Shown: piece after piece, positions 15,597-41,983 of the stretch
Layout of the letters: every line of letters begins with the position of its first letter
Position numbering within the stretch: position 1 is the stretch's first letter
Source of the DNA: Nitrososphaerota archaeon
Lineage (GTDB): Archaea; Thermoproteota; EX4484-205; JAAOZP01
DNA: 64,000 nucleotides
Reading direction: 5' to 3'
Assembly: GCA_011605725.1 (NCBI GenBank)
Contig: JAAOZP010000004.1
Span: 160,001-224,000 of the forward strand
Position numbers and translations under genes: made by a program
Notes under the pieces: model-generated
Database searches by the model: none
Told to the model about the DNA's origin: nothing
Seen by the model: only the letters and a program-made list of their open reading frames with translations

Positions 15597-15750
15597 AGCG
15601 CAGAGGATAGAAAGAACTATCTGGGTTTGAGAAAATACGAGTTCCACCAGTTCTAGTATGAGAAAGAGTTTTCTCTTCTGAATGAGTTTTTAAACAAAAA
15701 ATGGGAAATCGTATTCGCGCGCTAAAAGCATTAATAGTAGTTATTATGGC

Positions 15751-16167
15751 TTGGTCTCCATGGTTCTTAGCGTAATAGAGGTGAGTTCAACATCTAGGCA
15801 ACAGTTTATCGACATTACTGACAGAGTTGAGGGAGTTGTTAATAAGAGTGGTGTTAAAAATGGCGTGTGCTTTCTCTACGTTCCGCACACAACCGCAGGC
15901 ATAACTATAAACGAGAATGCTGATCCGAGTGTAGTCACAGATATTATTGAGACTCTTGAACGCGTAATACCTTTAGACGGACGTTACAGACATTTAGAGG
16001 GGAATGCTCATGCTCACATAAAGTCCAGCATACTCGGACACTCGGCCTGCGTGTTGATTGAAGACGGTAGGCTCATGCTCGGGACATGGCAAGGCGTGTT
16101 CCTATGTGAATTCGATGGGCCGAGGAGGAGGAAAGTCTTAGTTAAAATAATCGAGGAAAAGGTTTGA
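15751..16167 (+). CDS. yjbQ: YjbQ/UPF0047 family protein
   Basis: [38 protein letters not shown]. Confidence 0.92.
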
Positions 16168-16363
16168 GTCTAGAACAGGCAGGGATTGTAGCAGTGCGCG
16201 CAGTTAACGTTTCCATGAGTCTCGAAAGCATAAGGATTTGAGATAGCGAGAGAGAAACATAGTTCATCCCACTACCTTGACTCTTATCGCAAGCTTTCTG
16301 GTGAGTACTGGAGCGTCAGGATTGTAGAGCCGGAGAAACTCTAAAAGCTCGATTCTTCCTTTT

Positions 16364-17155
16364 CTAATCCGCGTTTCTAAACCTAATCGGAACATATTCG
16401 CCGGCGAAAGGCCTGCTTCTCCGTTCGCACCCTTCCCTCGGGCAATACTTGCAGGCGACGTACTCGTTTAACGTTGCAGCGAACACGCCGGAGACAGATT
16501 TCCTTGGAACCATCAGGCAGCTGGACGTTAGGCGGACACCTATGTTTTTCAGCGGGTTCAAGATGCTGAACAGCACTCTCTGCTGCTCGATTCCGAAAAG
16601 CCTGCCGGAGCCTGTGCCGGGCCCGAAGCCAGAAACCGGGACCCCCAGCCTGTTCTCGACGAGGCGTCTCAGCTGAACACTGGCCTTGCTCAAAGCGTAG
16701 TCTCCCACTTTTTCCAAGACGAATGCTTCAAAAACGTTTGACACCCCCAGCCTGGAGGCCTCCTCCTCGAGTCTAGACCCTATGGTGACCACGTAGAGTG
16801 CAACCTCCTGTCCCCGGGTCAGAACATCCCCGAGCACGATGCTTTTCAAAGTGTGACCACTCTCCAAGGTAACCTCGTCACCCTCTATGCTCACAACCCT
16901 GGTGAACGCGTATACTGCTCTGGGCTCTATAAGGCTACGGCACTTATCCACGAGCGATTCCATCCCTCCCACCCTGTCCCTAAGCCTTCCTACCAGTATG
17001 CCCCTTAGAACCTCCTCCGTCACGATTTCGACAGCAATAGGGTTAACGACCTCTATAGACAGAGGGTTGTTCCGCCGGCTGCGCATATCTCGCTCCGGAT
17101 CGGGTGCTAGATAAAGTTTTGCGGCACATGAAGCATTAGCCTCCCCATCTTCCAC
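16364..17155 (-). CDS. Stand-alone B12-dependent methionine synthase activation-domain-like protein (true start probably later)
   Basis: YVVTIG, FGPG.G, QQRVLF, IGVRLTSSCLMVPRKSVSG, CKYCPREGC. Confidence 0.75.
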   Translation of the reverse strand: MEDGEANASCAAKLYLAPDPERDMRSRRNNPLSIEVVNPIAVEIVTEEVLRGILVGRLRDRVGGMESLVDKCRSLIEPRAVYAFTRVVSIEGDEVTLESGHTLKSIVLGDVLTRGQEVALYVVTIGSRLEEEASRLGVSNVFEAFVLEKVGDYALSKASVQLRRLVENRLGVPVSGFGPGTGSGRLFGIEQQRVLFSILNPLKNIGVRLTSSCLMVPRKSVSGVFAATLNEYVACKYCPREGCERRSRPFAGEYVPIRFRNAD

Positions 17156-17358
17156 ATACTGTTGACTGAGGCTTTCAAACGAGATCTCCTCAATTCTTAA
17201 AGAATGGTTTGGAACAGTTTACCTTAAGCCGCATCAAGCGCACTGTAGATGCGCATGCTAAACTTTTAAACAGCAGAGCACGCTCTCCCAGAAGAATAAC
17301 ACCTCTCAGAGCAATATTAAGCACAACCCGCTTAATAAACGGACGCTAGCGTGCGCTC

Positions 17359-17740
17359 ATGCCTCACGTTGAGATCGTCAACATAGTTATTCCGGGAGTT
17401 AACGATGACGAGGAGTGTTTAAGATGGTTGATCGAAAGGCATGTTGGGAAGCTTGGAACCTGATACGCCCCTTCACTTTACTCGTTACCATCATGAATAC
17501 AAGTTTAAACTTCTCCTAAAACCCGTGAAAACATTATAAAAAGCAAGAGAGCTAGCAGGGTCTATGGGAGTATTATTCTCCTGAATAGCGAATGTTCCGG
17601 GACACAAATATGAGAACACCTGGTGTCCTAGATGCGGAGAACTGTTAATAAAATGTTGGAGGTTCACTGTAGCAGGTAATAAGATGACTCTAGAGAGTAA
17701 ATGCCTGGATTTCGGCTTTAAGACGCCGGTAGACAAAATA
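17359..17740 (+). pseudogene. C-terminal fragment of AmmeMemoRadiSam-type radical SAM enzyme
   Basis: HVEIVNIVIPGVNDD, PDTPLHFTRY, NVPGHKYENTWCPRCGELLI; one frameshift and two stops; starts at motif 17347. Confidence 0.8.
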
Positions 17741-17744
17741 AACG

Positions 17745-17780
17745 TTTACCAGGGTTATACTTATATATAACCTAGGTAAA
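17745..17780. promoter_or_regulatory. Inverted-repeat operator over the TATA box of the AbiE operon
   Basis: TTTACCAGGGTTATA-N6-TATAACCTAGGTAAA, arms match at 13/15. Confidence 0.6.
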
Positions 17781-18430
17781 TGATACTCATGTCTCATAAA
17801 ATACCTCTCGCCAAAATATTAAAAGGCAAGCTTTTTCATGTCGCAGAGTTGCAGGATTTAATGATTATTGAGCTTTCTAAAAGCTTCGATTTCATTCTTC
17901 ATGGTGGTACCGCTGTATGGAGAATCTACGGTGGAAAAAGGTTTTCGTATGACGTAGATGTTTATCATAATAATCCGGATGAATTGGCTAGCCATTTTTC
18001 TTCAACAAGATTGTTCAAAGTGCTTAAGTCAAAAATTACACCTTCAAAAGTTCTTTATCTCAAGATAGGGAATGATGCGATCATTGAACTAGAGGCTTCT
18101 CCTACTCCCCGAAGTATTAAAGTTGTCGAAGCAAATTTTTGGCTTGTAGACGGGAGTAGCATGGTTGTGGTTACTCTCCCGCCTGAAAGCCTTTTGAGAG
18201 AGAAAGTGAACGCATTTGTAAACCGTAGGTCTGCTAAAGACCTGTACGACATATTCTATTTACTAGATTTATGTGACAAGAGTAAGATTGTTAAAGACGT
18301 AGAGAAAATAATTCCTCTCTTGAGAACTGAACCTAAGGATTTCGCAGGATTACCGGAGTTAATCCTAGTAGGTAAGTCTCCAAGTTTTGAGACGATTGTG
18401 AGGAAGGTGGAAACTTATGCCACGGGTTAA
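17780..18430 (+). CDS. AbiEii/AbiGii nucleotidyltransferase toxin (type IV TA)
   Basis: HGGTAVWRIYGGKRFSYDVD, EKVNAF..R..KDLYDI. Confidence 0.88.
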   Translation: MILMSHKIPLAKILKGKLFHVAELQDLMIIELSKSFDFILHGGTAVWRIYGGKRFSYDVDVYHNNPDELASHFSSTRLFKVLKSKITPSKVLYLKIGNDAIIELEASPTPRSIKVVEANFWLVDGSSMVVVTLPPESLLREKVNAFVNRRSAKDLYDIFYLLDLCDKSKIVKDVEKIIPLLRTEPKDFAGLPELILVGKSPSFETIVRKVETYATG

Positions 18431-19022
18431 GTATGATTCCTTTCTTAAAAAGCTTCAGACGACCAGCATGTTTACTTTTAAGACTGTTGAAAGCAAAGTT
18501 GGAAAAAGTTATGCAAAGGTATTGCTGCATAACTTAAAGAAAAAGGGGTTAGTGATAGAGTTGGTTAAAGGAGTGTATACTTTTAAAAAATCTCCGTACA
18601 TGTTTGCCAAAGCTATTCCCAAGTCCTATGTAGGCTTAGGAAGCGCTGCTTTTCTACATGGTCTTTGGGAACAAGTATCTAGGATCACAATTCTTTCTCC
18701 TTATGCTTCTCTGAAAGCCAGAGTAGGCGAGAGAGAAATCTCCGGCTTTAAAGTTGTTTTAAGGAAGATTTCTGAAAAAATGTTCTTCGGATACGAGCTC
18801 AAATACATGGAAGAAATAGGAGAATGGATAAGGGTTTCTGACCCTGAGAAAACGCTCATAGACCTTGTCTACTTCAACTACCCATTTAAAAAAGAGATAG
18901 TTCCTAAGCTCTTAGAGATTGTTGACAATGGGAAAGTCATGGAATACATGAGAGTGATGAAGCTGAGAAGGGTTAGAGGGTGGGTGAAAATTCTAAGAGA
19001 AATAAAGCCATACTTAAACTAG
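18417..19022 (+). CDS. AbiEi-like antitoxin / transcriptional regulator
   Basis: N-terminal wHTH (KGLVIELVKGVY), SYVGLGSAAFLHGL..Q, VSDPEKTLIDL. Confidence 0.85.
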   Translation: MPRVKYDSFLKKLQTTSMFTFKTVESKVGKSYAKVLLHNLKKKGLVIELVKGVYTFKKSPYMFAKAIPKSYVGLGSAAFLHGLWEQVSRITILSPYASLKARVGEREISGFKVVLRKISEKMFFGYELKYMEEIGEWIRVSDPEKTLIDLVYFNYPFKKEIVPKLLEIVDNGKVMEYMRVMKLRRVRGWVKILREIKPYLN

Positions 19023-19277
19023 TTTGAAAAACACGATAAATATTTTCATTCAGGCTCTTCGCTTAAAAAGGGATTCGTTCTTTTCTCCTTGCCGATGCTT
19101 GAAAAAGGTCCGTGACCAGCGTAACCGAAGTATCATCAGCCTATTCCTTATGTAGGGGACTATTTCTTCGAAAGATCCCCGAGAAGGTCGGTAGCGCGCG
19201 CTGCTTTTAATCAACAAATCTTCAAGGACATCAGTTTTTATAAAGCCTTAATAGACTGCTTAAACGCTTGGAAAAAG

Positions 19278-20195
19278 TTGACAAGCCTGGTTGAAACAGT
19301 GCTAGAAATAGTCGTCTCCATTTCCCTAGGGATAGTTCTAAAGCGGCTCTATATTCTCAATGAGTCTATCGGCAGAAAATTGCTGTCACTATCCCTAAAC
19401 ATTCTCCTCCCCCTTATAGTGTTCCACTCCTTTGTGACCGTCAAAATATCTATGAATGAGGCTCTTCTGCCGGTGGTCGGGCTTCTCATAAACCTCTCGC
19501 TCTTAGCCATTGCATATTTAGTGCTGGAGAGTATTGAAATGAGTAATGCTCGAAAAGGAGCTTTCCTACTTGCATGCAGCACTCTGAACATCGGCATAAT
19601 TGGATTGCCTTTCATAAGCCTATTCTTTAATACGGAGGGTGTTGCAACCGCTTCTCTAATAGATATAGGTAACTCCATATACGTTTTCGCCATCGCCTTC
19701 CTAGTCGCCTCACGCTTCAATCCCTCGAAGAGCGAAAGATCTCTGAAAAGCAGCGTTAAAAACCTGTTAGCACAGCCATACATCTTATCTATAATAGCTG
19801 GATCGATTGCCAACCTATTAAGATTAGATTTGCCCCCGCAAGCCAACGAATTAATAACTTTTATATCATTGGTTAACGCTGTAATGATGCTTATTGCAGC
19901 AGGGGTTTTCACCAGGCTTCCAAGGAGAAGCCTTTTACGGGAAATATTCTTATCAATATTTGTAAAAATATTGATTGGAAGCCTAATAGGCTTCGCTTTT
20001 GCAATCTTGCTTCAACTTACTCCGCAAGCAACGGGAGTCATGATAATCGTTGCTTCTCTACCCCCTGCCTTCATGACTCTTGTACATGCTAGTGCTGAAA
20101 ATCTCGACTTAGAGTTTGCCAGCACATTGTTGGGCTCAATGCTCGCCATAGGCATTCCTGTAATAGTTTTCTATGGCTTATTCTTCTCACTCTAA
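19278..20195 (+). CDS. AEC (auxin efflux carrier) family transporter
   Basis: NIGIIGLPF, about 10 TM, SLPPA; bracketed by motifs at 19192 and 20194. Confidence 0.85.
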   Translation: MTSLVETVLEIVVSISLGIVLKRLYILNESIGRKLLSLSLNILLPLIVFHSFVTVKISMNEALLPVVGLLINLSLLAIAYLVLESIEMSNARKGAFLLACSTLNIGIIGLPFISLFFNTEGVATASLIDIGNSIYVFAIAFLVASRFNPSKSERSLKSSVKNLLAQPYILSIIAGSIANLLRLDLPPQANELITFISLVNAVMMLIAAGVFTRLPRRSLLREIFLSIFVKILIGSLIGFAFAILLQLTPQATGVMIIVASLPPAFMTLVHASAENLDLEFASTLLGSMLAIGIPVIVFYGLFFSL

Positions 20196-20370
20196 GCGCA
20201 CGCTATCTGCAACATTAGACACTATGAGGACAAGCCGGTTCAGCAGCAGTGGAAGGCCGAGTCAAAAACGTTCTTAAGGCTTTTTATAAATCTTGAAGGC
20301 AGGGTTCTTAACTGAAGCTGGAATTGGAATCCGCCCGATTCCTAACCATCATAAGTTTTAGCGCGAGCCA

Positions 20371-20443
20371 ACATATAATTATTCACGCTTCTGAGTAAAA
20401 ATTTTCCGCATTTCCAAAATACTATATGGGTGCTTAAAAATAC
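20371..20443 (-). repeat. Diverged inverted copy of the promoter region at about 28893-28965
   Basis: Reverse complement TATTTTTAAGCACCCATA-TAGTATTTTGGAAAT...AAGCGTGAATAAT matches 28893 onward. Confidence 0.8.
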
Positions 20444-20589
20444 TTGATTAGCACGTGCTTTCGGCTGGGTGAGATAATAATCGTGTCTTTCAATCTTTCC
20501 TTTGGATTGACCTCAAGATGGATAAGCGCGCGCCGTCTTTCAGATTTCCTTGTTGAACCTTCTTTTGAAAGAGTTAAGTATCAGTACAG

Positions 20590-21888
20590 GTGTTAAGTAA
20601 TTGTATGGGGTGTAAAAAGCCATCTTTGAGAGTTCTTCCAGTCATAGTGTGTAGGGAGGAACAGGTTAGAGATATAGATTTTCAGAAAGGGATGGAGGAG
20701 CTGAGGAAGAATATTTCAACCGAGGTTCGAATTTTGAAGGAGTGTATTATCAACGGTGAAAAGGATCTTGTTAAGCTTGAAGAACGTGTTTCTGAAGCCG
20801 ATGTTATTCTCCTTCTTAAACCAGGATTAGGACTAGGAAGCTGTGTTGTCAAAATCGTTGAATCCAACCTTCCCGTGATTCTCTTCAACAAGGAGGGTTC
20901 GGTTTGGACTCCACTCGACGCTTTGGAATATGTTTATCCCAGAAACAATGTTTGGGTTGCTGCGGACTACGAGGACTTAGATTTTCGGCTGAAAATCTTA
21001 GAAGCAAGGAAAAACATAGGCAGTACGAAGCTGCTTGTTTTAAACGCGGATTATCCCCACTGGGAAAGATGGCTCATGCGCGTCCCCGGGGGATTAAACA
21101 CGATTAGGGAGAGGTTTGGAATAGAGGTTGAGTATGTTCGGAGCGAGGAAGTCGTGGAGAGGTGGCGTGGGGTCGAGGAGGAAAAAGTAAAGAAGGTTGC
21201 CGAGGAATGGATAGGGAATGCTGAGAAAATAATTGAGCCCTCGAGAAGCGATGTTGAGAAAGTTTCCAGACTGTATCTGGTGATGAAGGATCTTCTACGT
21301 GAAAAAGGTGCTCAAGGATTAACGATGGCTTACGGCGAAGATCCTTTACCTGTTCCCTGTTTCGCATACGTCAAGCTTAGGGATGAGGGTGTTCCAGCTG
21401 CGTGCGAGGCGGATATCATCTCGCTCATCACAATGGTTATTTTGCATTATGTTACGGGTAAACCCAGCTTCATGGGGAACTTAAGACATGTTGATCAGAA
21501 CAATAACACGCTCATGATTAGTCATTGCGTCGCGCCGACTAAGATGGCTGGCTATGATGAGCCAGCGCTTCCCTATGTTTTAAGAAGTCAGCACTGGGGT
21601 CCGCCGGCTGGCGTTTTAAGCGCCTTCGTCCCGATGAACACCAGCCAAGAAGTTACAGTCTGCCGCCTGGACGGTGAGTTGAAGAGTATGCTGATTACAA
21701 GAGGAGTTATTGAAGAATGCAGGGATCTAGAGGAGTATTGTCGCAACACGGTTCGCATAAAGGTCAGTAACGTTAAGAAGCTCATCCATAGCACATCGGG
21801 AAACCATCATGTCATGGTTTACGGCGATCATAGGGAAGAAATAAGGGAACTGAATAAATTGTTCGGAGTCGCTACAATTGAAGTATGA
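20590..21888 (+). CDS. L-fucose/L-arabinose isomerase-like protein
   Basis: PCFAY..L.DEGVPAACEAD, SHC, CRNTV, GNHHVMVYGDH. Confidence 0.8.
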   Translation: MLSNCMGCKKPSLRVLPVIVCREEQVRDIDFQKGMEELRKNISTEVRILKECIINGEKDLVKLEERVSEADVILLLKPGLGLGSCVVKIVESNLPVILFNKEGSVWTPLDALEYVYPRNNVWVAADYEDLDFRLKILEARKNIGSTKLLVLNADYPHWERWLMRVPGGLNTIRERFGIEVEYVRSEEVVERWRGVEEEKVKKVAEEWIGNAEKIIEPSRSDVEKVSRLYLVMKDLLREKGAQGLTMAYGEDPLPVPCFAYVKLRDEGVPAACEADIISLITMVILHYVTGKPSFMGNLRHVDQNNNTLMISHCVAPTKMAGYDEPALPYVLRSQHWGPPAGVLSAFVPMNTSQEVTVCRLDGELKSMLITRGVIEECRDLEEYCRNTVRIKVSNVKKLIHSTSGNHHVMVYGDHREEIRELNKLFGVATIEV

Positions 21889-22194
21889 AGTGATGTCGAA
21901 ACAGGTGTAAGGAGAAGGGTCTCGGCAATCTTTCAGCTGATAGAGACACGGCTCTCCATAGCTTCATGAAGCTTGGTTTCTGGTCTAAGCACCCTTGTTC
22001 CCTGCGAGAGAATATGGAAGAAGCAGTTAAGGGCGATTTGGTCAACGATGCTGAAACGGGGAAGAGGTTTAACAGGATGCGGAAACGATACTTAAAAGTT
22101 GAGAAGCAATGTTTTCCAACTTTAGGCATGACAAGTTTAGCGCGCGCTGACTCCAGATTTAAAAGCTTTAACTTTCCATCAGGAGTTTAGAAGC

Positions 22195-23319
22195 ATGAGT
22201 CCACTTGGGAAGGTGCATGTAGGAGTAGTAGGCGGAGGCTTCGGGTCTGTTTTCAAGTGGCATAGTCATCCGAATTGCATTGTGGAAGCAGTATGCGACC
22301 CTGTTCCTGAAAAACGTAAGCGTTTAATGCAGGTTTACAATTGTGAAAAGTCGTATGAGAATCTTGAGGAGCTTTTGCAGGACCGGAGGGTTGAAGCGGT
22401 CGCCCTCTTCACTCCCGCGCCCCTTCACGCTGAGCATGCTGTCGAGTGTTTGAAATCTGGGAAACACGTCTTATGCGCGGTTCCAGCCTGCATGACGCTG
22501 GAGGAGGCAAGTATGCTTCTCGAGACTGTTAGGGAGACAGGTTTGAACTACATGATGGCTGAGACTAGCTGGTATCATCAGGCAGTAATCTCGGCGAGAA
22601 AATGGTTTAAAGAGGGAAGGTTTGGCAGAATATTCTACACGGAGGCTGAATACTATCATCCAGGATTAGCGTCGCTATTCTTTGACAATAATGGCAATAA
22701 GACTTGGCGCTACGGGTTCCCCCCTATGCTTTACCCTACGCACTGCACTGCATACCTAGTTGGAGTTACTGGAGAGAAGATGGTTAGGGTTTCCTGCGTA
22801 GGATGGGGAGACGATTCTCCAATTCTCAAGAATAATGCTTACAACAATCCTTTCTGGAACGAGACCGCGTTTTTCATAACAGATAAGGGTAATGCCTTCA
22901 GGGTGGCCGTCTACTGGAACGCTCCCGTCGGCCCTTGTGAAAGAGGACAGTGGATTGGAGAGAAAATGAGTTTCTTCGAGCCTCACCCTAATGGCACTAA
23001 ACATATTGTCTGGAAGGCTGGAAGCAGCCCTTTAGACTTGCCGCAGATGGTAAGCTATGAACAGGCAGAATGGTGGAGGACAGATATTCTTCCAGAGTCT
23101 TTGCGTCATCCGAGTGGACACGATAATTCTCATAACTTCATAATTCATGAGTTCATTCAGTCCATTGTCGAGAAGCGTTCTCCAGCTGTCGGAGTCTACG
23201 AGGCTCTGGCCATGACTATTCCAGGCATAATTGCTCACCAATCGGCCTTAAGAGGAGGAGAACAGATGAGGATCCCAAGGCTTGAGCCTGGGAGCGCGCG
23301 CTTTCACGCCAGTTTCTAA
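22195..23319 (+). CDS. Gfo/Idh/MocA family oxidoreductase
   Basis: VGVVGGGFG, TPAPLHAEH, GKHVLCAVP, YPTH; last codons run through the motif at 23292. Confidence 0.9.
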   Translation: MSPLGKVHVGVVGGGFGSVFKWHSHPNCIVEAVCDPVPEKRKRLMQVYNCEKSYENLEELLQDRRVEAVALFTPAPLHAEHAVECLKSGKHVLCAVPACMTLEEASMLLETVRETGLNYMMAETSWYHQAVISARKWFKEGRFGRIFYTEAEYYHPGLASLFFDNNGNKTWRYGFPPMLYPTHCTAYLVGVTGEKMVRVSCVGWGDDSPILKNNAYNNPFWNETAFFITDKGNAFRVAVYWNAPVGPCERGQWIGEKMSFFEPHPNGTKHIVWKAGSSPLDLPQMVSYEQAEWWRTDILPESLRHPSGHDNSHNFIIHEFIQSIVEKRSPAVGVYEALAMTIPGIIAHQSALRGGEQMRIPRLEPGSARFHASF

Positions 23320-23384
23320 ATCGCTTTCGATTAGAACAAATTTTAAATTCTCCAGGGTTCTAAATCTTCGAGTGCTAGGGTTCA

Positions 23385-23790: not shown

Positions 23791-23991
23791 AAAAACAGGC
23801 TTCGCGTTTTAAACCAGCAGATTAATTTCTCATGGAATAGGCGCGAGTAGGATCCTCCGGCCAGAGAACAAGGAGTGGAATCCGGATAGGCTTTTAGATC
23901 CTGTGTTTGAACCCAATCTTCCCCTTCTGTCTTTCTCGTCTGATGCTTTTAAGATTTCCACCGCTTAGGCTAGCCGAAGCTTCAAGCATGA

Positions 23992-32185: not shown

Positions 32186-32197
32186 TAGCGCGCGCGG

Positions 32198-32848: not shown

Positions 32849-32885
32849 GAGCGCGCGCGTGCAGGCGGAATGCTTATAGCTCGAC

Positions 32886-33620: not shown

Positions 33621-33645
33621 TATCTGGTGATCAGAACGCGCGCTA

Positions 33646-34005: not shown

Positions 34006-34092
34006 GAGCGCGCGCGCCGCAACAGCAGCGATGATAACTCCTAGAAGGATCAACATTTTCGGTTCATACTTCCATTTCCTTAGCATTCCAAC

Positions 34093-34698
34093 TCATCTCT
34101 TTACCATCTCTTTGGTTTGGATGTAGGCTCCGTGCCAGTTATGATACCAGACCTGACCCGTGTAGGCGTTCACGCTGAGCATACCATAGGTTTTCCCATC
34201 CTTTTCGACATGGATCGTGTAGTACCCGTAGAAGGGATGCACATCCCCAGCTATGGCGCCTGGAAGGTATGTGTCCATCCATCTCTGAGCGTACTCCTTC
34301 GCCTGATCCACACTGACCGATTTGTTTCCGATCCTTGCCATCCAGCCCATCATGCCATGCATCCCATACTTGGTGTTCCACATAATGTTCGGTCCCTGTT
34401 CGGGTCGAATGTAGTCGTTGCCCATCATTTTCATCATCCTTCCTGTGCCCGGCTTATCGATGATCATCTCAAACGCCCCAATGCCCGTGCTCCTCTCGTA
34501 ATAGACAACGTAGAAGTTAAGCTCGAACTCCATGATCTCGTCAATCGCCAAATCCTCGTTGTTTAATGACTTTAAATAGTTCTCAGCGATCCTGATCGCA
34601 TCGTCCATTGTGACTAGGCCTTGCCACCCAACCCCCACGCCCTGCATTGGACACATTATTCCAAGCCCCCACATGGCAAAGGGTGCCAGAGAAAACAT
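34093..34698 (-). CDS. Met/Gly-rich secreted protein with PepSY-like repeats (start may extend to about 34764)
   Basis: GAFEMIID, PEQGPNIMWNTKYGM, FYGYYTIH, GMLSVNAYTGQVWYHNWHG. Confidence 0.7.
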   Translation of the reverse strand: MFSLAPFAMWGLGIMCPMQGVGVGWQGLVTMDDAIRIAENYLKSLNNEDLAIDEIMEFELNFYVVYYERSTGIGAFEMIIDKPGTGRMMKMMGNDYIRPEQGPNIMWNTKYGMHGMMGWMARIGNKSVSVDQAKEYAQRWMDTYLPGAIAGDVHPFYGYYTIHVEKDGKTYGMLSVNAYTGQVWYHNWHGAYIQTKEMVKR

Positions 34699-34760
34699 AA
34701 GTCCAAGGGACCCCGCTATGATTAACGCTGTTCCTATCGTTATCCTGTTTTTGCTCCGGC

Positions 34761-34871
34761 TCAGGATTCCAACTCCTCCTTCATCTTCAGGTACTGTTCC
34801 CTCGTGATCTCGCCCCTAGCGTATCGTTCCTTTAGGATCTCAAGGGCCCTTCCCTCGCCCCTGGATTCTGA
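34761..34871 (-). pseudogene. SHOCT domain C-terminal fragment
   Basis: ALEILKERYARGEITREQYLKMKEEL*; cut at motif 34872. Confidence 0.8.
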
Positions 34872-35087
34872 TAGCGCGCGCCGGGATTCAAGATCCTTCC
34901 AAATCCCCCCAACCCCCTCGGGAACCCTTCAGAGTGCCCTCTTCATGGTGGCGCGCGGTGAGGCCCCACCAGAGCGCAAGCTACATTCAGCGTAGCTTAC
35001 GCATAGTCATCAAAAACCCATTTCAAGCAGCCTTGTATTAGCGAGGTAAAGTTAATTAAGCCTTGCCGCATAATTGAAGACAGAAGA

Positions 35088-35297
35088 ATGAGCGAAGTAA
35101 CTTTGAGTATGGTGTATGAAGAGGTTAGGAAGCTGAGTAAGAAGCTGGATTTCCTTGAGGAGATAATTGAAGAAATAGTGATAAGGGAGCTGCCGAAGGC
35201 TAGGCTGAGTGACGAGGAGGTTTCAGAGATTAAAAGCTCGCTGGAGCAGATGAAGAAGGGCGATTACGTTACTTTAGAGGAATTGATGAATGCCTGA
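35088..35297 (+). CDS. RelB-like antitoxin
   Basis: Small acidic ORF ending KGDYVTLEEL; overlaps relE. Confidence 0.75.
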   Translation: MSEVTLSMVYEEVRKLSKKLDFLEEIIEEIVIRELPKARLSDEEVSEIKSSLEQMKKGDYVTLEELMNA

Positions 35298-35573
35298 ATA
35301 TAGGGTTCTTGCCCATAGGAGAGTACTTAAATTCCTTAAACAACTGGAAGATGAGAATCTAAAAACAGGCTTAAAGAAACGATTCTTAGACTTAAAGACT
35401 ACCCGGTTATTCTGAGAAGGCTTGATGTCGAAAAACTTGAGAACCTAGAAGGAGGCTACAGGGTCCGCTCTGGGGAATATAGAATCATCTTCATAGTTGA
35501 TAAGAAGGAGAAGATAATCTTTATCACTCATATTGGTAAAAGAGAATCAATATACGAGAAAGAAATTAAATAG
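35290..35573 (+). pseudogene. RelE/ParE toxin, frameshifted in an A-run near 35362
   Basis: YRVLAHRRVLKFL / LDVEKLE..YRVRSGEYRIIF..GKRESIY. Confidence 0.8.
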
Positions 35574-35586
35574 CACATGAAACCCT

Positions 35587-35662
35587 TTACTCTTCGTCCG
35601 GGTCGGGCAGGTCCCAGTCAGGGTCAAGCTTGACTCGGCCTAGGGGCTTTCTTAAGCATTAT
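35587..35662 (-). pseudogene. ppsA: PEP synthase 3'-end fragment A
   Basis: [24 protein letters not shown]; matches tail of copy E. Confidence 0.75.
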
Positions 35663-35701
35663 GGAAACGCTTAAATTCTCCAAACTGATTGTCAATTAGA
35701 A

Positions 35702-35884
35702 GTGTCAGAGGTGGAGGCTACACTTAGGGAAATTAGGGAGGAGCTGAGGGAGATTAGGCTTCTGTATAAGGAGTTGATCGAGAGGCTCATACCTGTTGAG
35801 GAACCGTTAAGCGATGAGAAAGAGGCTATTGAGAGCAGCGATGAAACAGTAGGTGAGGAAGAACTCTTAAAGGCTCTGGATTAA
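35702..35884 (+). CDS. RelB-like antitoxin
   Basis: Small acidic ORF (LIPVEEPLSDEKEAI) directly upstream of relE. Confidence 0.75.
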   Translation: MSEVEATLREIREELREIRLLYKELIERLIPVEEPLSDEKEAIESSDETVGEEELLKALD

Positions 35885-35885
35885 A

Positions 35886-36149
35886 TTGATTAAAATAGAG
35901 GCTAAAAAGAGAGTATTAAAAACATTAAGAGATTTAGACAGGGATAGGAAAAACAGGATTAAAGAAGCCCTCCTCATCCTAAGCAACGATCCTCTACCTT
36001 TTAAAAAGCTTGATGTTATAAAGCTAAAAGGCTACGAGAACACGTATCGCATCAGGATCGGAGGCTTAAGAATAGTGTATGAGGTAAACTGGGACGAGAA
36101 AAAGATCATCATCCACTTCATAGGGCCCAGGGAGAAAGCCTATAAATAA
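35886..36149 (+). CDS. RelE/ParE toxin
   Basis: DVIKLKGYENTYRIRIGGLRIVY..IGPREKAY. Confidence 0.9.
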   Translation: MIKIEAKKRVLKTLRDLDRDRKNRIKEALLILSNDPLPFKKLDVIKLKGYENTYRIRIGGLRIVYEVNWDEKKIIIHFIGPREKAYK

Positions 36150-36154
36150 AGACT

Positions 36155-36250
36155 CTACTCTTTATCAGGAAGATCTCAGCCATGATCTGTTTTAACTTGG
36201 CCCAGTGCTTCTCCAGTATTATTCTTTGCTCAACGCTTGCAACGAGTTAT
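36155..36250 (-). pseudogene. ppsA: PEP synthase 3'-end fragment B
   Basis: LVASVEQRIILEK..GQVKTDH..DLPDKE*; cut by motif 36252. Confidence 0.75.
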
Positions 36251-36620
36251 GTAGCGCGCGCTTTCGAAGCTTATAAGGCCCTTATTAACTATGTTAGAGA
36301 GAGGCTGCTCCCTCTTCGCTTTTAACCTTCATAAACAGGCTTTTGACAGATAAAAAACGCTTAAAGCGCGCGCTCCTCCTCTTAAAAAACTGCTTCAAGA
36401 AATTCTGAAGCAATTAACAGGATAGAATTTAATTTTAGAATCTGTCGTTATTCAGTTACATTTTAAAATTTTAACTATGAATTATTAAAGCGCCGTTTTT
36501 AAGGCTTTCTTAGCGCGCGCACAGCAGGCTTTGCTCACAATACCCATTTGACACCATAGTTTTCTCTAGGCTTTCGTAAAAAGCTTATAGACCTAAACAT
36601 GTATACTAAACTGAAGCTGG

Positions 36621-38294
36621 ATGAACCATGAGTATTCCGTTCTTGTAGGTGGACAGGCAGGGGATGGAATAAGATTGGCAGGCTACGCTGTAGCAAAGCT
36701 TTTTAACAGACTTGGCTACTGGGTTTTTGCGTACAACGATTATCAGTCGCTAATAAGGGGGGGTCACAACTTCTCCATAATAAGAGCAGCTGAAAAGAGG
36801 ATAGAGGCGCATAAAGAAAGGGTCAACATAATTATAGCTATGAATCAGGACACTGTGGATAAGCATAATTGGAGGTTGGAGAATGAAAAACTGATTATTT
36901 TCGACTCAAACAACGTTAAGGCTGATGGGCTTGGTTTACCTCTAACCGAGATTGTGAAAAACAGGGGCTTGCCCCTAATCGCTAGGAACTCTGTTTCACT
37001 TGGCGCTTTAGCATCAGTGTTAGGTTTAGAATTTTCTTTGATCGAAAACGTGATAAGGAGTTCTTTAAGGAGGAGCATAGATGAGAACATAGCTGTAGCC
37101 AGAGAAGGATACGAGGCCGCCAGTAATCATAAGGGCTACTTCAGGATTCCTGTAGTTCACGGGTCTCAGCCAAAGCTGCTTCTTTCCGGAAACGAAGCTG
37201 TAGGGCTTGGTGCCGTCAGAGCCGGATTAAAACTATACGTGGCTTACCCTATGACGCCATCAACTCCTCTTCTTCACTATTTAGCCAATAATTCTGACGA
37301 ATTTGGACTACGAGCGATTCAACCAGAGAACGAAATCGCCGCCATAGGGATTGCTCAAGGTGCAGCATACGCCGGGATAAGATCAATGGTTGGAACCTCG
37401 GGCGGTGGCTTTTGCCTGATGGTAGAGCATTTAAGCCTAGCCGGCCAAGCCGAAATCCCCATTTTAATAATGATCGGTGAGAGGCCGGGACCGGCGATCG
37501 GGCTTCCCACCTATCACGCGCAGGGAGAGCTCTTGTTCTCGATATTCGCTGGACATGGAGAATTTCCAAGAATAGTTGCTTCCCCAGGCGATCCGGAAGA
37601 GGCATTCTACTTGTCTGCAGAAATGTTAAACTTAGCTTGGAAGTTTCAAGTTCCTGCAATACTGCTCGCAGATTACTGTCTTCTCGAAAGCACTTTCTCA
37701 ACAATTATAGATGAAGAAAAAGTAATTATTGAAAATCCAAAAATGTGGACAGGAGAAGGCGAATACAAGCGTTACTTGCAAACAGGAAATGGTGTTTCGC
37801 CTCTGGCTTTCCCAGGAATGGAGAAAGCGATAGTAAAATCAAACAGCTATGAGCATGACGAATTTGGCATAACGACAGAAGATCCAGAGTTAACTAAGCA
37901 GGGTGCTGAGAAAAGGATTAAAAAAAGCGTAGCAATAGAAAATGAGCTTAAGAAGAAAACGACTGTAAAAACATATGGGAACCCCATGAGTCAAATCGTT
38001 CTTATTACTTGGGGATCGACAAAAGGGGGTGTAGCTGAGATTGCAGAGAAGCATGGCCTTAGTGTTATTCAACCTTTGTATCTGAATCCTCTACCAGTCT
38101 GGGAAATTGAGAAATATCTCTCTAAAGCCGAGAAGACTATTTGCATTGAAGCAAATTCAACTGGTCAATTAGCTAAATGGATGAAATACCATGGCTTTAG
38201 GATTGATGAAACCATTCTAAAATATGATGGAAGACCATTCACTATAGACTACCTTGAGGAGAAAATTAAGAGGGTGATTAGCAATGAGCATTAA
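36621..38294 (+). CDS. 2-oxoacid:ferredoxin oxidoreductase alpha subunit (gamma-alpha fusion)
   Basis: GGQAGDG, YQSLIRGGHN, YPMTPST, ENEIAA, TSGGGF, EHDEFG. Confidence 0.93.
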   Translation: MNHEYSVLVGGQAGDGIRLAGYAVAKLFNRLGYWVFAYNDYQSLIRGGHNFSIIRAAEKRIEAHKERVNIIIAMNQDTVDKHNWRLENEKLIIFDSNNVKADGLGLPLTEIVKNRGLPLIARNSVSLGALASVLGLEFSLIENVIRSSLRRSIDENIAVAREGYEAASNHKGYFRIPVVHGSQPKLLLSGNEAVGLGAVRAGLKLYVAYPMTPSTPLLHYLANNSDEFGLRAIQPENEIAAIGIAQGAAYAGIRSMVGTSGGGFCLMVEHLSLAGQAEIPILIMIGERPGPAIGLPTYHAQGELLFSIFAGHGEFPRIVASPGDPEEAFYLSAEMLNLAWKFQVPAILLADYCLLESTFSTIIDEEKVIIENPKMWTGEGEYKRYLQTGNGVSPLAFPGMEKAIVKSNSYEHDEFGITTEDPELTKQGAEKRIKKSVAIENELKKKTTVKTYGNPMSQIVLITWGSTKGGVAEIAEKHGLSVIQPLYLNPLPVWEIEKYLSKAEKTICIEANSTGQLAKWMKYHGFRIDETILKYDGRPFTIDYLEEKIKRVISNEH

Positions 38295-39156
38295 GCTAGA
38301 GGATTTATCAACCTATGCTAAAAACACATGGTGCCCAGGATGCGGGAATTTTGGTATAGAAAGAGCAGCTAAGCAAGCTTTTATTGAACTCATAAACGAG
38401 GATAAAGTTAAAAGAGAAAAAATAGTAATGGTAACTGGTATAGGCTGCCATGGAAAAATCGCTGATTATATTAATGTAAATTCATTTTACTCTCTTCATG
38501 GAAGAGCTATTGCACCTGCAATTGGAATGAAGCTAGCAAACCCAACTCTGAATATTGTAGTATTCGTGGGAGACGGAGATGCCTTAGGGGAAGGATTGGA
38601 GCATACGGTATTTGCAGCTAAGAAAAATGTCGATATAACCGTAATAGTTCACGATAACAGAGTATATGCATTAACAACAGGCCAGTTTACCCCCACATCT
38701 CCAAAAGGATTCCGAGGAGGTTCGACACCTAAAGGTTCTCCTGAAGAACCATTGAACCCTATCGAACTAATGCTGGTTAGCGGGGCAACTTTTATAGCTA
38801 GAGCCTATAGCGCAAACCTGAACCACACGAAGGAACTCTTTAAGCAAGCAATATTGCATAAAGGTTTTGCGTTTGTAGATGTACTCCAACCATGCTACAC
38901 GTTCTTCGATACTTACAAGTATTATGGACCAAGGGTTTATGATCTTCAACAGGATGGTCATAATCCTTTAGATTGGGAGGCGGCGCTAGCAAGGGCAAAA
39001 GAATGGAATTATGGTGGGGAGGAGGCAAAGAGGATACCTATTGGGCTCTTCTTTAAAGCCGATAAAACTACATATGAGGATGCTGTGCTCTCCGGAAAGG
39101 ACTTGTATGATAAGAGTACACCTAGGATCAATATGGTCCTCCGGAGTCATGTGTAA
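38284..39156 (+). CDS. 2-oxoacid:ferredoxin oxidoreductase beta subunit
   Basis: WCPGCGNF, GIGC, HGRA, GDGD..N (TPP motif), LQPC. Confidence 0.93.
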   Translation: MSIKLEDLSTYAKNTWCPGCGNFGIERAAKQAFIELINEDKVKREKIVMVTGIGCHGKIADYINVNSFYSLHGRAIAPAIGMKLANPTLNIVVFVGDGDALGEGLEHTVFAAKKNVDITVIVHDNRVYALTTGQFTPTSPKGFRGGSTPKGSPEEPLNPIELMLVSGATFIARAYSANLNHTKELFKQAILHKGFAFVDVLQPCYTFFDTYKYYGPRVYDLQQDGHNPLDWEAALARAKEWNYGGEEAKRIPIGLFFKADKTTYEDAVLSGKDLYDKSTPRINMVLRSHV

Positions 39157-39694
39157 ACAAGCCGCTACCAAGTTGCATGAATCTCGGAACATATTGATGA
39201 ACTGGCTGAGAAAAAGAGCCTTCACTCCGGGTAAGCTTATTATGAGGGTAGAGAACAAGAAATAGACTAAAGCTAAATATAAAGGAGGCCGCATTAATTG
39301 ATATGATGGAACACGTGGAGAAGCCTAAAGAGGCGATTAGAATACGTGTGCTAGTTTTAGTAACTGTGATATAAAGTATACTTTTTGACTTAGCACGTGG
39401 TAGTATAACTCTGAATTTCAGTGGCGGCTTAGTTCGTGCAATTTTCATCATGTCTCTAGGCACCGTGTAGAATAAATTGGCAATTTTAGCCCCCTTGACT
39501 GTAGTTAGCAGCCTGACTTTATTGTTTATCGACATATGTACGGATGGCGTCGGCATGGTCCGGTTCAGCGTGATTCACACCACGCGCGCGCTAGTCCATT
39601 CCACTTCTTTTCTTTAGAAAGAAGTCTTCAGTTTGCAAGAAAAATTCGAAAAAACCTTATATTATACGCTATGCTCCCCCTATTTTTCCTCGGG

Positions 39695-40819
39695 ATGAAA
39701 AGAATTCTCATAATCGGTGGAGGCTACTCTGGTACAGAGATAATAAGGCAGCTTGTCCTAAGAGGGGTTAGAGGCATTGAGGTGGAACTCATATCTGTCG
39801 GGCGTTATTTTGAGAACACGATAGCTGGCACAGAAGTTATAAGCGAAAAACTGAGAGCAGAAGACCTCAGGTATGACTTACAGCTGCTCTCAGACTACTG
39901 GGGTTTCAGCCTAACAGCCGGCAGGGTCACTAAGATTAACCTAGACGAGAAGGTCGTTAAGCTAGAGAACGGTGAGAGAGAGTACGATGTTCTTGTAGTT
40001 GCTTCAGGTTCAGTTCCAAACTTTTACGACGTGAAGGGTTTCGACCTAGCGCTCCCTAGCTACCGTCTCTCCGATTTTGAGCAAATAAACAGAAGTTTAA
40101 AAAGATTAAACAATGATCGTCCGAGAGTTATAATAGTTGGAGCCGGGTATGTGGGTTTGGAAGTAGCCGCGGAGATAATGGACTTCTTCAAATCATCAGG
40201 AAGGAAGGCGGAGGTCATTGTTGTCGAGAAGACGGGCCACGTCCTTCCTGGTTTCAACAATGAGGCTGCTAGAAGAATGACTCTTGAAGCCATGAGCTCA
40301 AGGGGCATAGGCTTCAACTTCGGGAAGGGGGTTAAGCGCATAGCTGAGGGGAAAGTGGTGCTGGAGGACGGCAGTGAGCTTCAATCCGACTTGACGATCT
40401 GGTCAGGGGGTGTAAAGGGTTCTGAGCTCGCGTTGAACACTATTGGGGCCAGCCTGCATAATAGTTACATCCATGTTGATGAAAAGCTATTGATCAAGGG
40501 ACGGCTGGACGCCTTCGCGATCGGTGACGCGGCTTACGTAGAGACCGGTGGAAGCGTGGCCCAGAAGATGGCTGGCGAGGCCCTCGAGCAGGCCGTGACG
40601 ACTGCTAGGAACATAATTTCTATAATAGGCGGCCAGAAACCCAGCGTCGAGCATAAGATAAACTACTCTGTCAACTTCCCTAAGGTATTGCTCTCCCTTG
40701 GCGAGGGCAAAGCGCTACTGATCTTCGGCCCGCATTATGCAAGCCTTGGAAGCACTGAGTATTTCTTGAAGAGAAGAATCGACGTTGAGGAAATGATGGG
40801 AAGGTTCCCACGTGCATGA
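39695..40819 (+). CDS. NDH-2/SQR-like FAD-dependent oxidoreductase
   Basis: Likely start MKRILIIGGGYSG at 39695; IIVGAGYVGLEVAAE, FAIGD. Confidence 0.88.
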   Translation: MKRILIIGGGYSGTEIIRQLVLRGVRGIEVELISVGRYFENTIAGTEVISEKLRAEDLRYDLQLLSDYWGFSLTAGRVTKINLDEKVVKLENGEREYDVLVVASGSVPNFYDVKGFDLALPSYRLSDFEQINRSLKRLNNDRPRVIIVGAGYVGLEVAAEIMDFFKSSGRKAEVIVVEKTGHVLPGFNNEAARRMTLEAMSSRGIGFNFGKGVKRIAEGKVVLEDGSELQSDLTIWSGGVKGSELALNTIGASLHNSYIHVDEKLLIKGRLDAFAIGDAAYVETGGSVAQKMAGEALEQAVTTARNIISIIGGQKPSVEHKINYSVNFPKVLLSLGEGKALLIFGPHYASLGSTEYFLKRRIDVEEMMGRFPRA

Positions 40820-40915
40820 TTTTGCCATAGTCAAAAAAATGGTAGGATGAAGTTTCAATTCGACAAACTATGGCACCCTATTGTTGAAACCCCTCAGTAA
40901 TTGCCGATTAGTACG

Positions 40916-40927
40916 TAGCGCGCGCTA
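40916..40927. repeat. Perfect consensus palindrome TAGCGCGCGCTA (also at 42675, 43782; 14-bp version at 44682)
   Basis: Read directly. Confidence 0.95.
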
Positions 40928-41148
40928 AGCAAGGTTCCGAGAATGAGGTAATGAGTCAGTAGGCCGAAGGATTCGAACCCTACTAATTAGAAGCAGTCTT
41001 TTTTATCAAAATCCCTTTCGTTGATCAAAGATTGGGTTGTCATCTTTGTTTGAACTCTCAATATGGATTACAACTAGGCTTAATATGTAGCGTGCGCTAG
41101 TGGAGAAAATATATAAGAAACCTAAAGGAATTACAATATTGACCGAAT

Positions 41149-41649
41149 GTGTTTGATAGGACGCAGTATGTTGTAGAGAAAAAGTTGTTAACAGTGTTAA
41201 CGTTAGGGGAGACCTATGACATCAAGGATGTGAACGGGAACCTGTTGGGCTACATTAAAAGGAACTCAAAATTTTGGTTTGAGGGAATGGACGGATCCCG
41301 CCAAGGTGAAATCCGGGATGTGGGTGGTGCATACGAGGTTTACGATGCTCGAAATCAGCTTCGAGCTACTGTAGTATGGGCTGGGGGACTGGGGCTCCGA
41401 AGTAGTAAGTGGCAGATGAAAGATCCTCAGGGCCAGCAATTGGCCATAGCCGAGGGTGACTTTTTGGGACGTAATTATCGCATCCTAGCGCCAGACGGAA
41501 GCGCCATAGCCCAGATACACAAGAAATGGGCATCCACGAGCTGGCAATCCTATCGCATCGATATTTCACGCCAAGGTTTCGATCCCTTCTTGATCTTGAG
41601 TTACGTTGTAGTCGATATTTCACAACAAGTGACGGTGTACTACCCCTGA
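41149..41649 (+). CDS. LURP-one/scramblase (tubby-C-like) family protein
   Basis: Repeated YDIKDVNGNLLG / YEVYDARNQL / YRILAPDGSAIAQIHKKW, YRIDI. Confidence 0.75.
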   Translation: MFDRTQYVVEKKLLTVLTLGETYDIKDVNGNLLGYIKRNSKFWFEGMDGSRQGEIRDVGGAYEVYDARNQLRATVVWAGGLGLRSSKWQMKDPQGQQLAIAEGDFLGRNYRILAPDGSAIAQIHKKWASTSWQSYRIDISRQGFDPFLILSYVVVDISQQVTVYYP

Positions 41650-41852
41650 CCGATTTAGCTACAAGCAGAGGAAAACCTCTTTGAATGTCAGGGAACCAGA
41701 TGCCTCCAGCTCGCACCTGACCGTTGCAGAGAGCTTGGACTTTAACGACGCCATGATTCCTTCTGTTATAGCGCGCGCCTAACGTCAAAGGTACGCGAGT
41801 CCAACTAGAGCGTGCGTATGGAGATATTAAAAGCCAAAAAGATGATTCAAAA

Positions 41853-41960: not shown

Positions 41961-41983
41961 TAAGCGAGAGAACGCGACTGTTG

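Follow-up and report, generated by a model that had tools for sequence, protein, structure and literature searches.

A short GC-alternating palindrome as a probable mark of recent DNA joints in the accessory islands of an uncultured archaeal lineage

Palindromic DNA stands at gene borders or at sites of rearrangement in several described systems. The attC sites of integrons are imperfect inverted repeats of 55-140 nt with conserved R and L boxes, and the cassettes that they bound are promoterless, co-oriented and read from a common promoter; toxin-antitoxin genes are abundant in chromosomal integrons. Repetitive extragenic palindromic sequences (REPs) are imperfect palindromes of 20-40 nt with a conserved head, mobilized by a Y1 HUH transposase, the REP-associated tyrosine transposase (RAYT). 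Insertion sequences produce one-sided deletions anchored at their edge and inversions between two copies, and transposon excision leaves short, TA-flanked palindromic remnants. The highly iterated palindrome of cyanobacteria (HIP1) is said, in the title of a 1997 report by Robinson, to spread by substitution. Part of the HIP1 literature links it to site-specific and illegitimate recombination (excerpted text of PMC4390886), and the GC clusters of yeast mitochondria (e.g. GC42) are described as GC-rich palindromes in A/T-rich spacers that move by an unknown mechanism, have a 2-nt target (AG), show footprints, turn over rapidly, and merge and shuffle (portions of PMC4478555). Here we describe an alternating GC palindrome, with the core GCGCGCGC, in a 64,000-nt stretch of a Nitrososphaerota archaeon (positions 160,001 to 224,000 of contig JAAOZP010000004.1, assembly GCA_011605725.1; hereafter the window, with positions prefixed w). 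Comparison with related genomes and strains makes it likely that this motif is a recently active mark of DNA junctions, inserted de novo.

The window contains 29 matches to GCGCGCGC where 0.29 are expected, and none of 100 dinucleotide-preserving shuffles gave more than 2; with up to one mismatch, AGCGCGCGCT is found 35 times against 1.18 expected and a shuffle maximum of 6. The genome that holds the window (G000; 2.23 Mb in 20 contigs, 46.4% G+C, 93% complete) carries 189 separate sites of GCGCGCGC, which is its top 8-mer by observed over expected count, at 12.2 times the mononucleotide expectation. In a position table of these 189 sites, A precedes the core in 144 and T follows it in 115; the T and A one step further out on the two sides are weaker, and farther than 2 nt from the core, in both directions, information is close to zero. 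This gives TA(GC)4TA as the unit, 8-12 nt long and without a hidden longer element. Alternating runs in G000 comprise 162 of (GC)3, 119 of (GC)4, 31 of (GC)5, two of (GC)6 and one of (GC)8, with just 12 of the opposite phase (CG)4. Among the flank pairs of the (GC)4 runs, TA..TA is the most frequent (28 of 119), yet it is not the rule, and the non-TA flanks follow no clear direct-repeat rule.

Copies of A(GC)4T with one mismatch number 91 in G000, beside 88 exact ones, and 68 of the 91 are transitions and 23 transversions, while the possible single changes are 8 transitions and 16 transversions; the transitions are strongest at the central CpGs. From this spectrum, copies appear to be made exact and to drift later by C-to-T transitions, and such free decay argues against strong selection on the motif sequence. 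A longer element around the core was ruled out by the empty position table together with clustering of the motif flanks (n = 940), among which one pair aligns from the motif edge, formed by two paralogues, both with a motif copy at their end; repeats of at least 300 nt are few in the genome. The paralogues lie inverted at G000:C19:6416-7201 and 14124-14913 (genome, contig, positions), encode about 195 aa and are 72% identical over 797 nt. Each has a motif copy directly after its stop codon, and their final 73 nt are 96% identical, which suggests a recent conversion or exchange at the motif-proximal end.

The gain of the motif can be followed by comparison with other genomes, all of which are metagenome-assembled genomes (MAGs) and of which G002 and G016 were compared over their fetched parts. 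G002 is the closest relative of the window, with about 91% identity where alignable, and the window is a mosaic against it. De novo events were defined as those in which two genomes or strains are collinear on both flanks and the motif is present in one alone. At G000:C3:21960 (event a), 10 nt, TTGCGCGCGC, are gained and nothing is lost, within a T-run with 94%-identical flanks that is compatible with a TT duplication. Elsewhere the motif stands in the place of other DNA. At G016:C10, 5 nt are exchanged for GCACGCGCTT (event b), and at G016:C16 about 46 nt of G002 give way to 6-8 nt, GCGCGC abutting a native GCTA (event c). In an X1 contig (depth 24, shorter side 165 nt), 55 nt of the LURP-like open reading frame (ORF), w41398-41452, are replaced by GCGCGCGCT (event d). 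Two further replacements lie on G000:C1, one of 457 nt of a PIN gene of G002 by CGCGTGCT (event e) and one of 341 nt by GCTAGCACGCGCT (event f). An X6 contig lacks 574 nt with a ParE module, w35588-36161 (event g), and at G016:C29 198 nt of a 469-aa ORF at w14248-14447 are replaced by 43 nt beginning with TAGCGCGCGCTA, of which TA is native (event h). In cases where an intact gene stands in the allele without the motif, the allele with the motif is the derived one. Small insertions that bear the motif were also found in G016:C6, G002:C15 and G008:C18.

Copies already in place are sites of change as well. In a comparison of G000:C3:14-34 kb with G002:C45, homology starts exactly at a common motif, (GC)3 versus (GC)4, and the DNA to its left is different. 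Elsewhere in this region a common motif is followed in G000 by 3.5 kb with a radical-SAM gene, an intact MFS transporter gene and two inner motif copies, and is joined directly to the 3' part of the MFS gene in G002:C45; the 3.5-kb difference reads as a one-sided deletion that begins at the motif edge. The same two contigs differ by a 117-nt indel directly at the right edge of another common motif, and a motif common to G016 and G000:C7:260169, (GC)4 versus (GC)3, has an indel of about 75 nt at its left edge. Common copies with changed cores and indels at their edges indicate that copies are inherited, vary in core length and are hot spots for change.

The same association is seen at the level of homology breakpoints. 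The backbone at w7.2-17.1 kb is collinear in G002, G007, G008, G010 and G016. When the window was compared by blastn with those loci of G002 that had been fetched, the high-scoring segment pairs (HSPs) had 48 ends, of which 15 lie no more than 10 nt from a motif that one genome has and that the other lacks, its sequence running on. Another hot spot, G000:C1:16-36 kb, has 34 HSP ends against G002, and 14 of them lie within 11 nt of such a motif. When G000-side tracts of (GC)3 or longer were considered over three regions, 18 of 79 HSP ends fell within 10 nt of one, compared with a mean of 1.9 under uniform placement and, in 2000 trials of intergenic placement, a mean of 4.5 and a maximum of 13. 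Among 83 tracts in 104 kb, 2 lie in DNA conserved with G002, 19 at HSP boundaries and 62 in DNA found only in G000; the conserved share of the 104 kb is 25%, a lower bound that counts the fetched loci alone.

Strain variants give a view of more recent events. Parts of w32000-41999 are present in runs of 16 studies, in every case as assembled contigs and not as raw reads; depth gaps of single runs (X5 and X6 at 33.2-34.5 kb) were not used as evidence. An X5 contig joins w36170 to w41876 without the OFOR, NDH-2 and LURP genes, and the 33 nt between its two sides contain TAGCGCGCGA. A second X5 contig spans w36544-41111, most of this block, so that both alleles are present in one sample. X2 contigs continue past w32198 and w32850 with an intact, G002-like gene, and X2 also joins w35622 to w41875 and w41878, without a motif, between paralogous repeats. 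Inversion joints in run contigs connect w27549 with w35645 and w35600 with w36097. These alleles point to a process that is still active among strains of the same hot springs.

Within G000 the motif lies mostly outside genes. According to crude ORF maps, by which 87% of the genome is coding, 129 of the 189 sites are intergenic, and 36 of the 60 'genic' sites are within 60 nt of an ORF end. Motif density is 0.48 per kb for divergent spacers, 0.65 for convergent ones and 0.29-0.54 for tandem ones, and the distance from motif to start codon ranges from 5 to 656 nt without a peak; the like density in the three spacer types rules out an element of promoters only or of terminators only. The sites are clustered, with four 20-kb bins of 8-13 sites each, and the two densest bins of the window (C4:180-220 kb) carry 21. 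Toxin-antitoxin genes (PIN, ParE, HicAB, AbiE, HEPN/MNT, CcdA) and truncated genes abound in these hot spots, and profile searches found no recognisable transposase or integrase in them. Segments between successive copies in the window are 49 nt to 4.2 kb long; some contain intact genes, toxin-antitoxin pairs or gene fragments, and others are empty. Over the whole genome, copies never come closer together than 66 nt, save one overlapping pair, and the spacings, from 66 nt to more than 10 kb, are not the regular period of a CRISPR array (repeat 24-40 nt). A link to CRISPR was also discarded on the grounds that the repeat of this genome, GTAGAATCTCAAAGGAGAATTGAAAG, is unrelated to the motif. Arrays of GTAGAATCTCAAAGGAGAATTGAAAG occur at G000:C11:137806-140140, at a contig end, and at C15:1-16423, at a contig start, and are probably one array split by assembly.

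Relatives of one protein of the window are MAGs labelled Candidatus Brockarchaeota, Thermoproteota or Bathyarchaeia. Exact AGCGCGCGCT was counted in 17 genomes of the genus, with 118 copies in G016, 88 in G000, 70 in G002, 33 in G008 and 32 in G007, then 18 in G006, 16 in G009, 6 in G012 and 3 each in G010 and G013, and none in the seven others. A reversed-sequence control gave 0-3 per genome, and outside the genus AGCGCGCGCT never exceeds the control. The motif is thus a lineage-specific burst, with 0-118 copies inside one genus. The motif-rich genomes measure 2.0-2.3 Mb and the seven motif-free ones 0.6-1.8 Mb, some of them incomplete; the motif may be linked to the size of the accessory genome, but kin are not independent of one another. 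Literature searches on GCGCGCGC in archaea and on palindromes, mobile elements and islands of Brockarchaeota found no report of the motif, and the main text of the Brockarchaeota description paper is without the terms palindrom, GCGCGC, transpos, mobile, repeat or toxin. Motif doublets on viral contigs were set aside, since the 57 loci are mostly chance matches in high-GC DNA. One of the viral contigs (L086, 47% G+C) has three TAGCGCGCGCTA-type copies within 105 nt at locus 5001-5106, at the contig end, next to an alpha/beta hydrolase that matches its profile from position 48 onwards. The contig encodes proteins without relation to this genus, and it may hold the same sort of joint in another lineage.

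Several enzyme families were searched for a candidate activity. Y1_Tnp (PF01797) is absent from all 17 genus genomes, of which G000 is 93% complete, while control genomes matched; in G000, resolvase and RVT_1 gave no match and TnpB only a fragment, in a search that did not extend to DDE transposases, Ku/LigD, PrimPol or Cas1. The C5 methyltransferase PF00145 occurs in G001 and G004 alone, both motif-free, and N4/N6 methyltransferases (PF01555) are patchy in the genus and uncorrelated with the motif; other methyltransferase families lay outside the search. Profile searches detected no recombinase in the window, and a search for an anchor of the motif found no tRNA and no Rfam family there. G000 has one Phage_integrase match, on contig C17 and not beside the motif array. 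This tyrosine recombinase was rejected as the enzyme of the motif, its kin being found in G013, G011 and G015 and as a fragment in G007, with no real match in G002 or G016. It is the only one of the genome (G000:C17:8672-9895, 407 aa, with a C-terminal zinc ribbon), and a 94%-identical copy in the distant G013 suggests a shared integrating element.

The genes of the window had been described in an initial annotation as intact cassettes with their own promoters, closely bracketed by the palindrome. The bracketing itself is confirmed, as all 14 of the positions that it had given carry the motif or a close variant. The exact core GCGCGCGC is present at nine of them (w19192, w20524, w22138, w23292, w32849, w36511, w39582, w40916 and w41769), one-transition variants at w20194 (AGCGCACGCT) and w41088 (AGCGTGCGCT), and shorter alternating runs at w15716 and w33634 (7 nt) and w16193 (6 nt). 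The motif does overlap the AEC stop codon and lies within the last 26 nt of the Gfo ORF. Pfam matches bear out the names given to most genes, namely UPF0047/yjbQ, Mem_trans (AEC), GFO_IDH_MocA, SfsA, POR/TPP (OFOR alpha and beta) and Pyr_redox_2 (NDH-2-like), and leave two without such backing, the isomerase, which has a weak NCBIfam match alone, and LURP-one, which has a sub-threshold, partial Pfam match (E 7e-4). In seven units, TATA-like A/T boxes were seen in the stretch that leads from the left motif to the start codon (by eye, without statistical control), and it is plausible that the units carry their own promoters. The coordinates of the units and of the other features are listed in Table 1.

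Table 1. Motif copies, gene units and other features of the window (window positions)
Feature	Position	Strand	Description
ABC permease edge	4529..4542		(GC)6-core motif copy abutting 5'-truncated permease gene 4018-4527, minus
Motif copy	10295..10304		inside segment ~10016-10859 absent from otherwise collinear relatives
yjbQ/UPF0047 unit	15716..16202	+	ORF 15751-16167, between two weak copies; variable slot amid conserved backbone genes
Variable island, ~34 kb	17200..51200		rich in motif copies and toxin-antitoxin genes
AEC transporter unit	19193..20204	+	ORF 19278-20195; exact motif to one-transition copy over stop codon
Isomerase-like unit	20525..22148	+	ORF 20590-21888; motifs 20525 and 22139
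Gfo/Idh/MocA unit	22139..23302	+	ORF 22195-23319; right-hand motif in last codons
Stray copy of NDH-2 3' end	26759..26903	+	94% identical to 40692-40836; junction with M24 block without motif
Motif doublet	27517..27585		encloses 49 nt; G002 homology ends 27516
Pseudogene fragment	32187..32859	+	32198-32850 of AAA_14/DUF4143 ATPase, both ends cut exactly at motif copies
sfsA unit	32850..33644	+	ORF 32886-33620; motif 32850 to 7-nt run at 33635
ParE toxin-antitoxin module	35588..36161		replaced by AGCGCGCGCG in X6 contig (event g)
Motif triplet	36253..36521		copies 36253, 36365 and 36512 around short non-coding pieces; G002:C20 homology starts 36374
OFOR operon unit	36512..39592	+	operon 36621-39156 between motifs
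NDH-2-like unit	39583..40926	+	between motifs; likely start 39671 or 39695, stop 40819
LURP-like unit	41089..41779	+	ORF 41149-41649
Further motif copies	42617..47175		42617, 42676, 42746, 43783, 44683, 44770, 45697 and 47166 separate PIN, HicAB and small ORFs

The same annotation had proposed that a process which leaves gene fragments also delivers or trims whole modules, and had suggested a comparison with sister genomes. In that comparison, differences in gene presence and order, among genomes as well as among strains, do have their breaks at the motif, and the expected fragments exist, cut exactly at motif copies as at w32198-32850. Delivery as motif-bounded units or circles found no support. 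The motif also inserts without cargo and marks plain deletions inside genes, neither of which a cassette system would predict; the lone joint in the run contigs that 'goes back', from w36083 to w27658, is not motif-bounded, and contigs cannot show circles. The order isomerase, Gfo, PIG-L, M24 is kept in G006, G007 and G010, and in part also in G002 and G016, and the spacers of these relatives are without the motif and have indels at just those places, so that here the motif came in between genes that were already adjacent. If copies survive only in harmless places, the bracketing is explained equally well as by selection for a promoter and a whole ORF, which the annotation had put forward.

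The AEC HSP to G013:C53 (w19202-20195, 84% identity) extends from the edge of one motif to that of the next, and the 6 kb fetched of that locus contain no motif. The isomerase HSP to G009:C40 begins at w20535, just inside the motif, and the Gfo ortholog of G002 reads AGCGCGTACT at the w23293 site, where G024 has 29 other nt. The ATPase fragment at w32198-32850 corresponds approximately to residues 119-345 of a 424-aa protein that is intact in G002, and carries a frameshift and stop codons. G002 homology resumes at w45705, beside the copy at w45697. In the truncated permease, a 169-aa ORF, the BPD_transp_1 match begins at profile position 21. In the yjbQ slot, backbone HSPs from G002, G007, G008, G010 and G016 stop at w15555-15586 and resume at w16289-16352; the relatives have 1.6-5 kb of other DNA there, and the breakpoints are 95-160 nt off the weak copies. 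G007:C53 has 3.6 kb between the flanks of the 34-kb island, its positions 9925-10704 corresponding to w16352-17129 and 14349-15352 to w51217-52218. No DNA match to sfsA was found in G002, G007, G008, G010 or G016. NDH-2 is in tandem with OFOR in the window and convergent with it in G007, G008 and G010, at 68-72% identity and with uncertain orthology. The doublets at w27517-27585 and w42617-42685 each consist of AGCGCACGCT followed by AGCGCGCGCT at an equal start-to-start spacing of 59 nt, around unrelated interiors. A 540-aa ORF at w49455-51077 (minus) gave no lead in Pfam, NCBIfam or Atlas; its first ~180 residues recur at 72-73% identity at G000:C19:164132-164683, C7:437825-438352 and C17:543-1079, in ORFs of 487 and 820 aa and one cut by a contig end, two of the three being at contig ends. 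This multi-copy family was dismissed as the enzyme of the motif, as its presence in the genus does not follow that of the motif.

Taken together, these observations make the motif look like the mark of a cut-and-join process that reshuffles accessory genes, not like a packaging signal for cassettes. A more specific reading, which we hold tentatively and at somewhat less than even chance, is that TA(GC)4TA is a short, lineage-specific joint sequence, and neither an integron-type site nor a fixed regulatory site. With similar reserve, we suggest that broken ends might be bridged through a self-complementary (GC)n linker or tail. Any two ends, whether chromosomal, duplicated or foreign, could then be stitched in either orientation, and existing tracts would be re-broken and re-made, so that events would concentrate in a few islands. 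In gene-dense DNA, copies would survive only in spacers, at gene ends and in dead genes, and intact genes with their own promoters would consequently look packaged; the bracketing of intact genes follows from such survivorship under joint, mobile-element and cassette models alike. A linker of this kind would cover deletion with filler, fragments cut on two sides, either orientation, the variable core and the absence of element ends.

A number of points weigh against a joint mark of this kind. The preference for TA..TA flanks (28 of 119) is not explained by plain annealing of tails, we know of no process that leaves a constant palindromic filler, and no enzyme was found among the few families searched. 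The clean 10-nt insertion of event a, with its possible TT duplication, fits a transposon-like insertion just as well. Among the gains themselves, the polarity of several stands without an outgroup, one flank is native sequence in two (events c and h), and the side length of event g is not listed. Contigs of four runs were placed at 90% likeness, and joints below 95% likeness call for caution. Ordinary indels occur too: the short side carries the motif in 3 of the 16 small collinear indels listed and is without it in the other 13. About two thirds of the breakpoints, the junction at w26779 among them, are also without a motif.

The main rival is a minimal element mobilized in trans, a 'nano-MITE' (after miniature inverted-repeat transposable elements, MITEs) whose 8-bp GC core would be moved or copied, with a 2-bp duplication, by a transposase preferring TA-like targets. 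We consider this unlikely, and equally so its corollary that adjacent deletions, two-copy inversions and co-integrate-like insertions follow as with insertion sequences. It is well served by the clean gain of the core plus 2 nt in a T-run between 94%-identical flanks, by the lead of TA..TA among flank pairs and by one-sided indels exactly at a motif edge with the motif kept; the NDH-2 unit, which lies between two copies and is inverted relative to three relatives, and the burst-like copy number (0-118 in the genus) also agree with it. The reading is strained by size and by the frequent loss of target. To our knowledge, 8-12 bp is far below any known transposable element, and two ends 8 bp apart hardly fit one complex; most de novo events lose 5-574 nt of the target, which is unusual for an insertion. 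The non-TA flanks, with no clear direct-repeat rule, speak against it too, as does the failure to find a transposase among Y1, resolvase and reverse transcriptase families (TnpB as a fragment alone, DDE families not searched). The platform implied by the initial annotation, in which the palindrome is a site-specific recombination site of the integron kind, units or circles move and whole ones are kept, appears improbable as an account of the whole. Single genes and operons are indeed bounded by copies, one common motif can have different DNA on one side in two genomes, 'empty' alleles with one motif stand where 'filled' alleles hold several motif-bounded segments, and toxin-antitoxin genes are abundant. 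Against this, the motif arises in motif-free collinear DNA, also without cargo; nothing is conserved past 8-12 nt and no attC-like structure is seen; units lie on both strands with TATA-like boxes upstream; the single tyrosine recombinase of G000 is on another contig and does not track the motif; the order isomerase, Gfo, PIG-L, M24 is older than the motifs; and the run contigs, which cannot show circles, hold no motif-bounded circle joint. A Cre/lox-like or integron-like site explains cassette exchange and not gains at motif-free sites, and the integron-like reading is thus supported only in part.

A selected site comparable to HIP1, acting in binding, methylation, Z-DNA formation or next to promoters and terminators and stimulating recombination incidentally, is very improbable. 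A GC-rich octamer palindrome that is the most over-represented 8-mer, 129 of 189 sites in intergenic DNA and some copies directly upstream of TATA-like boxes are what it would lead one to expect, and recombination links have been reported for HIP1 itself (part of the text of PMC4390886). Density is nevertheless alike across spacer types and start-codon distances are broad, the motif is nearly absent from conserved DNA and wholly so from 7 of 17 genus genomes, and copies decay freely by transitions; C5 methyltransferases occur in two motif-free genomes alone, and N4/N6 methyltransferases do not track the motif. Hardly credible, lastly, is a technical origin, be it through assembly joins or through chimeras with linkers or adapters. 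A constant palindrome between arbitrary pieces does resemble linker ligation, and the contigs of G000 retain adapter ends: C5, C7 and C13 start with AGATGTGTATAAGAGACAG and C14 ends in its reverse complement, which we take to be untrimmed Nextera mosaic-end adapter. The motif, however, is shorter than usual assembler k-mers, recurs at matching positions both in further genomes of the genus and in contigs from several runs, with depths of 17-300, in a stretch of which parts occur in runs of 16 studies, and its copies show evolutionary decay and are lacking in seven genomes of the genus.

Returning to the joint mark, its broadest form is a speculative proposal that we judge more doubtful than probable: an archaeal cut-and-join activity may stitch arbitrary ends through an 8-bp self-complementary GC linker and so build and erode accessory islands. 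If true, this would amount to a natural 'adaptor ligation', or to the smallest self-propagating DNA insertion known, and would point to an enzyme activity without a described counterpart. Every such event in the lineage would be readable directly from genomes, and the scar would date and map gains and losses of genes, inversions and the origin of pseudogenes in a lineage of uncultured archaea. It would also offer a mechanism for the assembly of toxin-antitoxin-rich archaeal islands that have no recognisable transposases or integrases. Even as an analogue of HIP1 or of the mitochondrial GC clusters, the motif would be a clean case of a palindrome gained by insertion, not by substitution.

The known systems each share some of these features. 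With integron cassettes, the motif has in common single genes between palindromic sites, presence/absence polymorphism there and many toxin-antitoxin genes; it differs in that no IntI lies by the array, only 8-12 nt are conserved, units occupy both strands, gene fragments are included and gain occurs free of cargo. Like REPs, bacterial interspersed mosaic elements (BIMEs) and REP doublets forming hairpins (REPINs), it is an extragenic palindrome in many copies, some of them doublets, that is tied to rearrangement, but at 8-12 nt it is shorter than these and perfect, and the Y1_Tnp family of the REP/RAYT system is present in 0 of 17 genomes. Its likeness to HIP1 (GCGATCGC) lies in being an octameric, GC-rich and over-represented palindrome with an extended palindromic consensus and lineage-dependent abundance; HIP1 is spread over coding and non-coding DNA, conserved, periodic and tied to the methyltransferases DmtA and DmtC (both sets of features as given in excerpts of PMC4390886 and PMC5861425). 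The motif, unlike HIP1, is nearly excluded from conserved DNA, clustered in islands, gained by insertion or as deletion filler, and without a matching C5 methyltransferase in the genus genomes searched. A transcription-factor, promoter or terminator site is a poor parallel as well, for the motif has no fixed position and orthologous spacers in relatives are without it. The yeast mitochondrial GC clusters form hairpins of 30-50 nt with constrained stems (portions of PMC4478555), while the motif has a core of 8 bp that is not long enough for a hairpin, is free to decay and acts as filler at deletions. Insertion sequences and MITEs, finally, have an element body and shared ends that the motif lacks, and no transposase was found in the families searched, which did not include DDE; with the events caused by insertion sequences it nonetheless shares one-sided deletions from an edge, inversions between two copies and a short, TA-flanked palindromic remnant.

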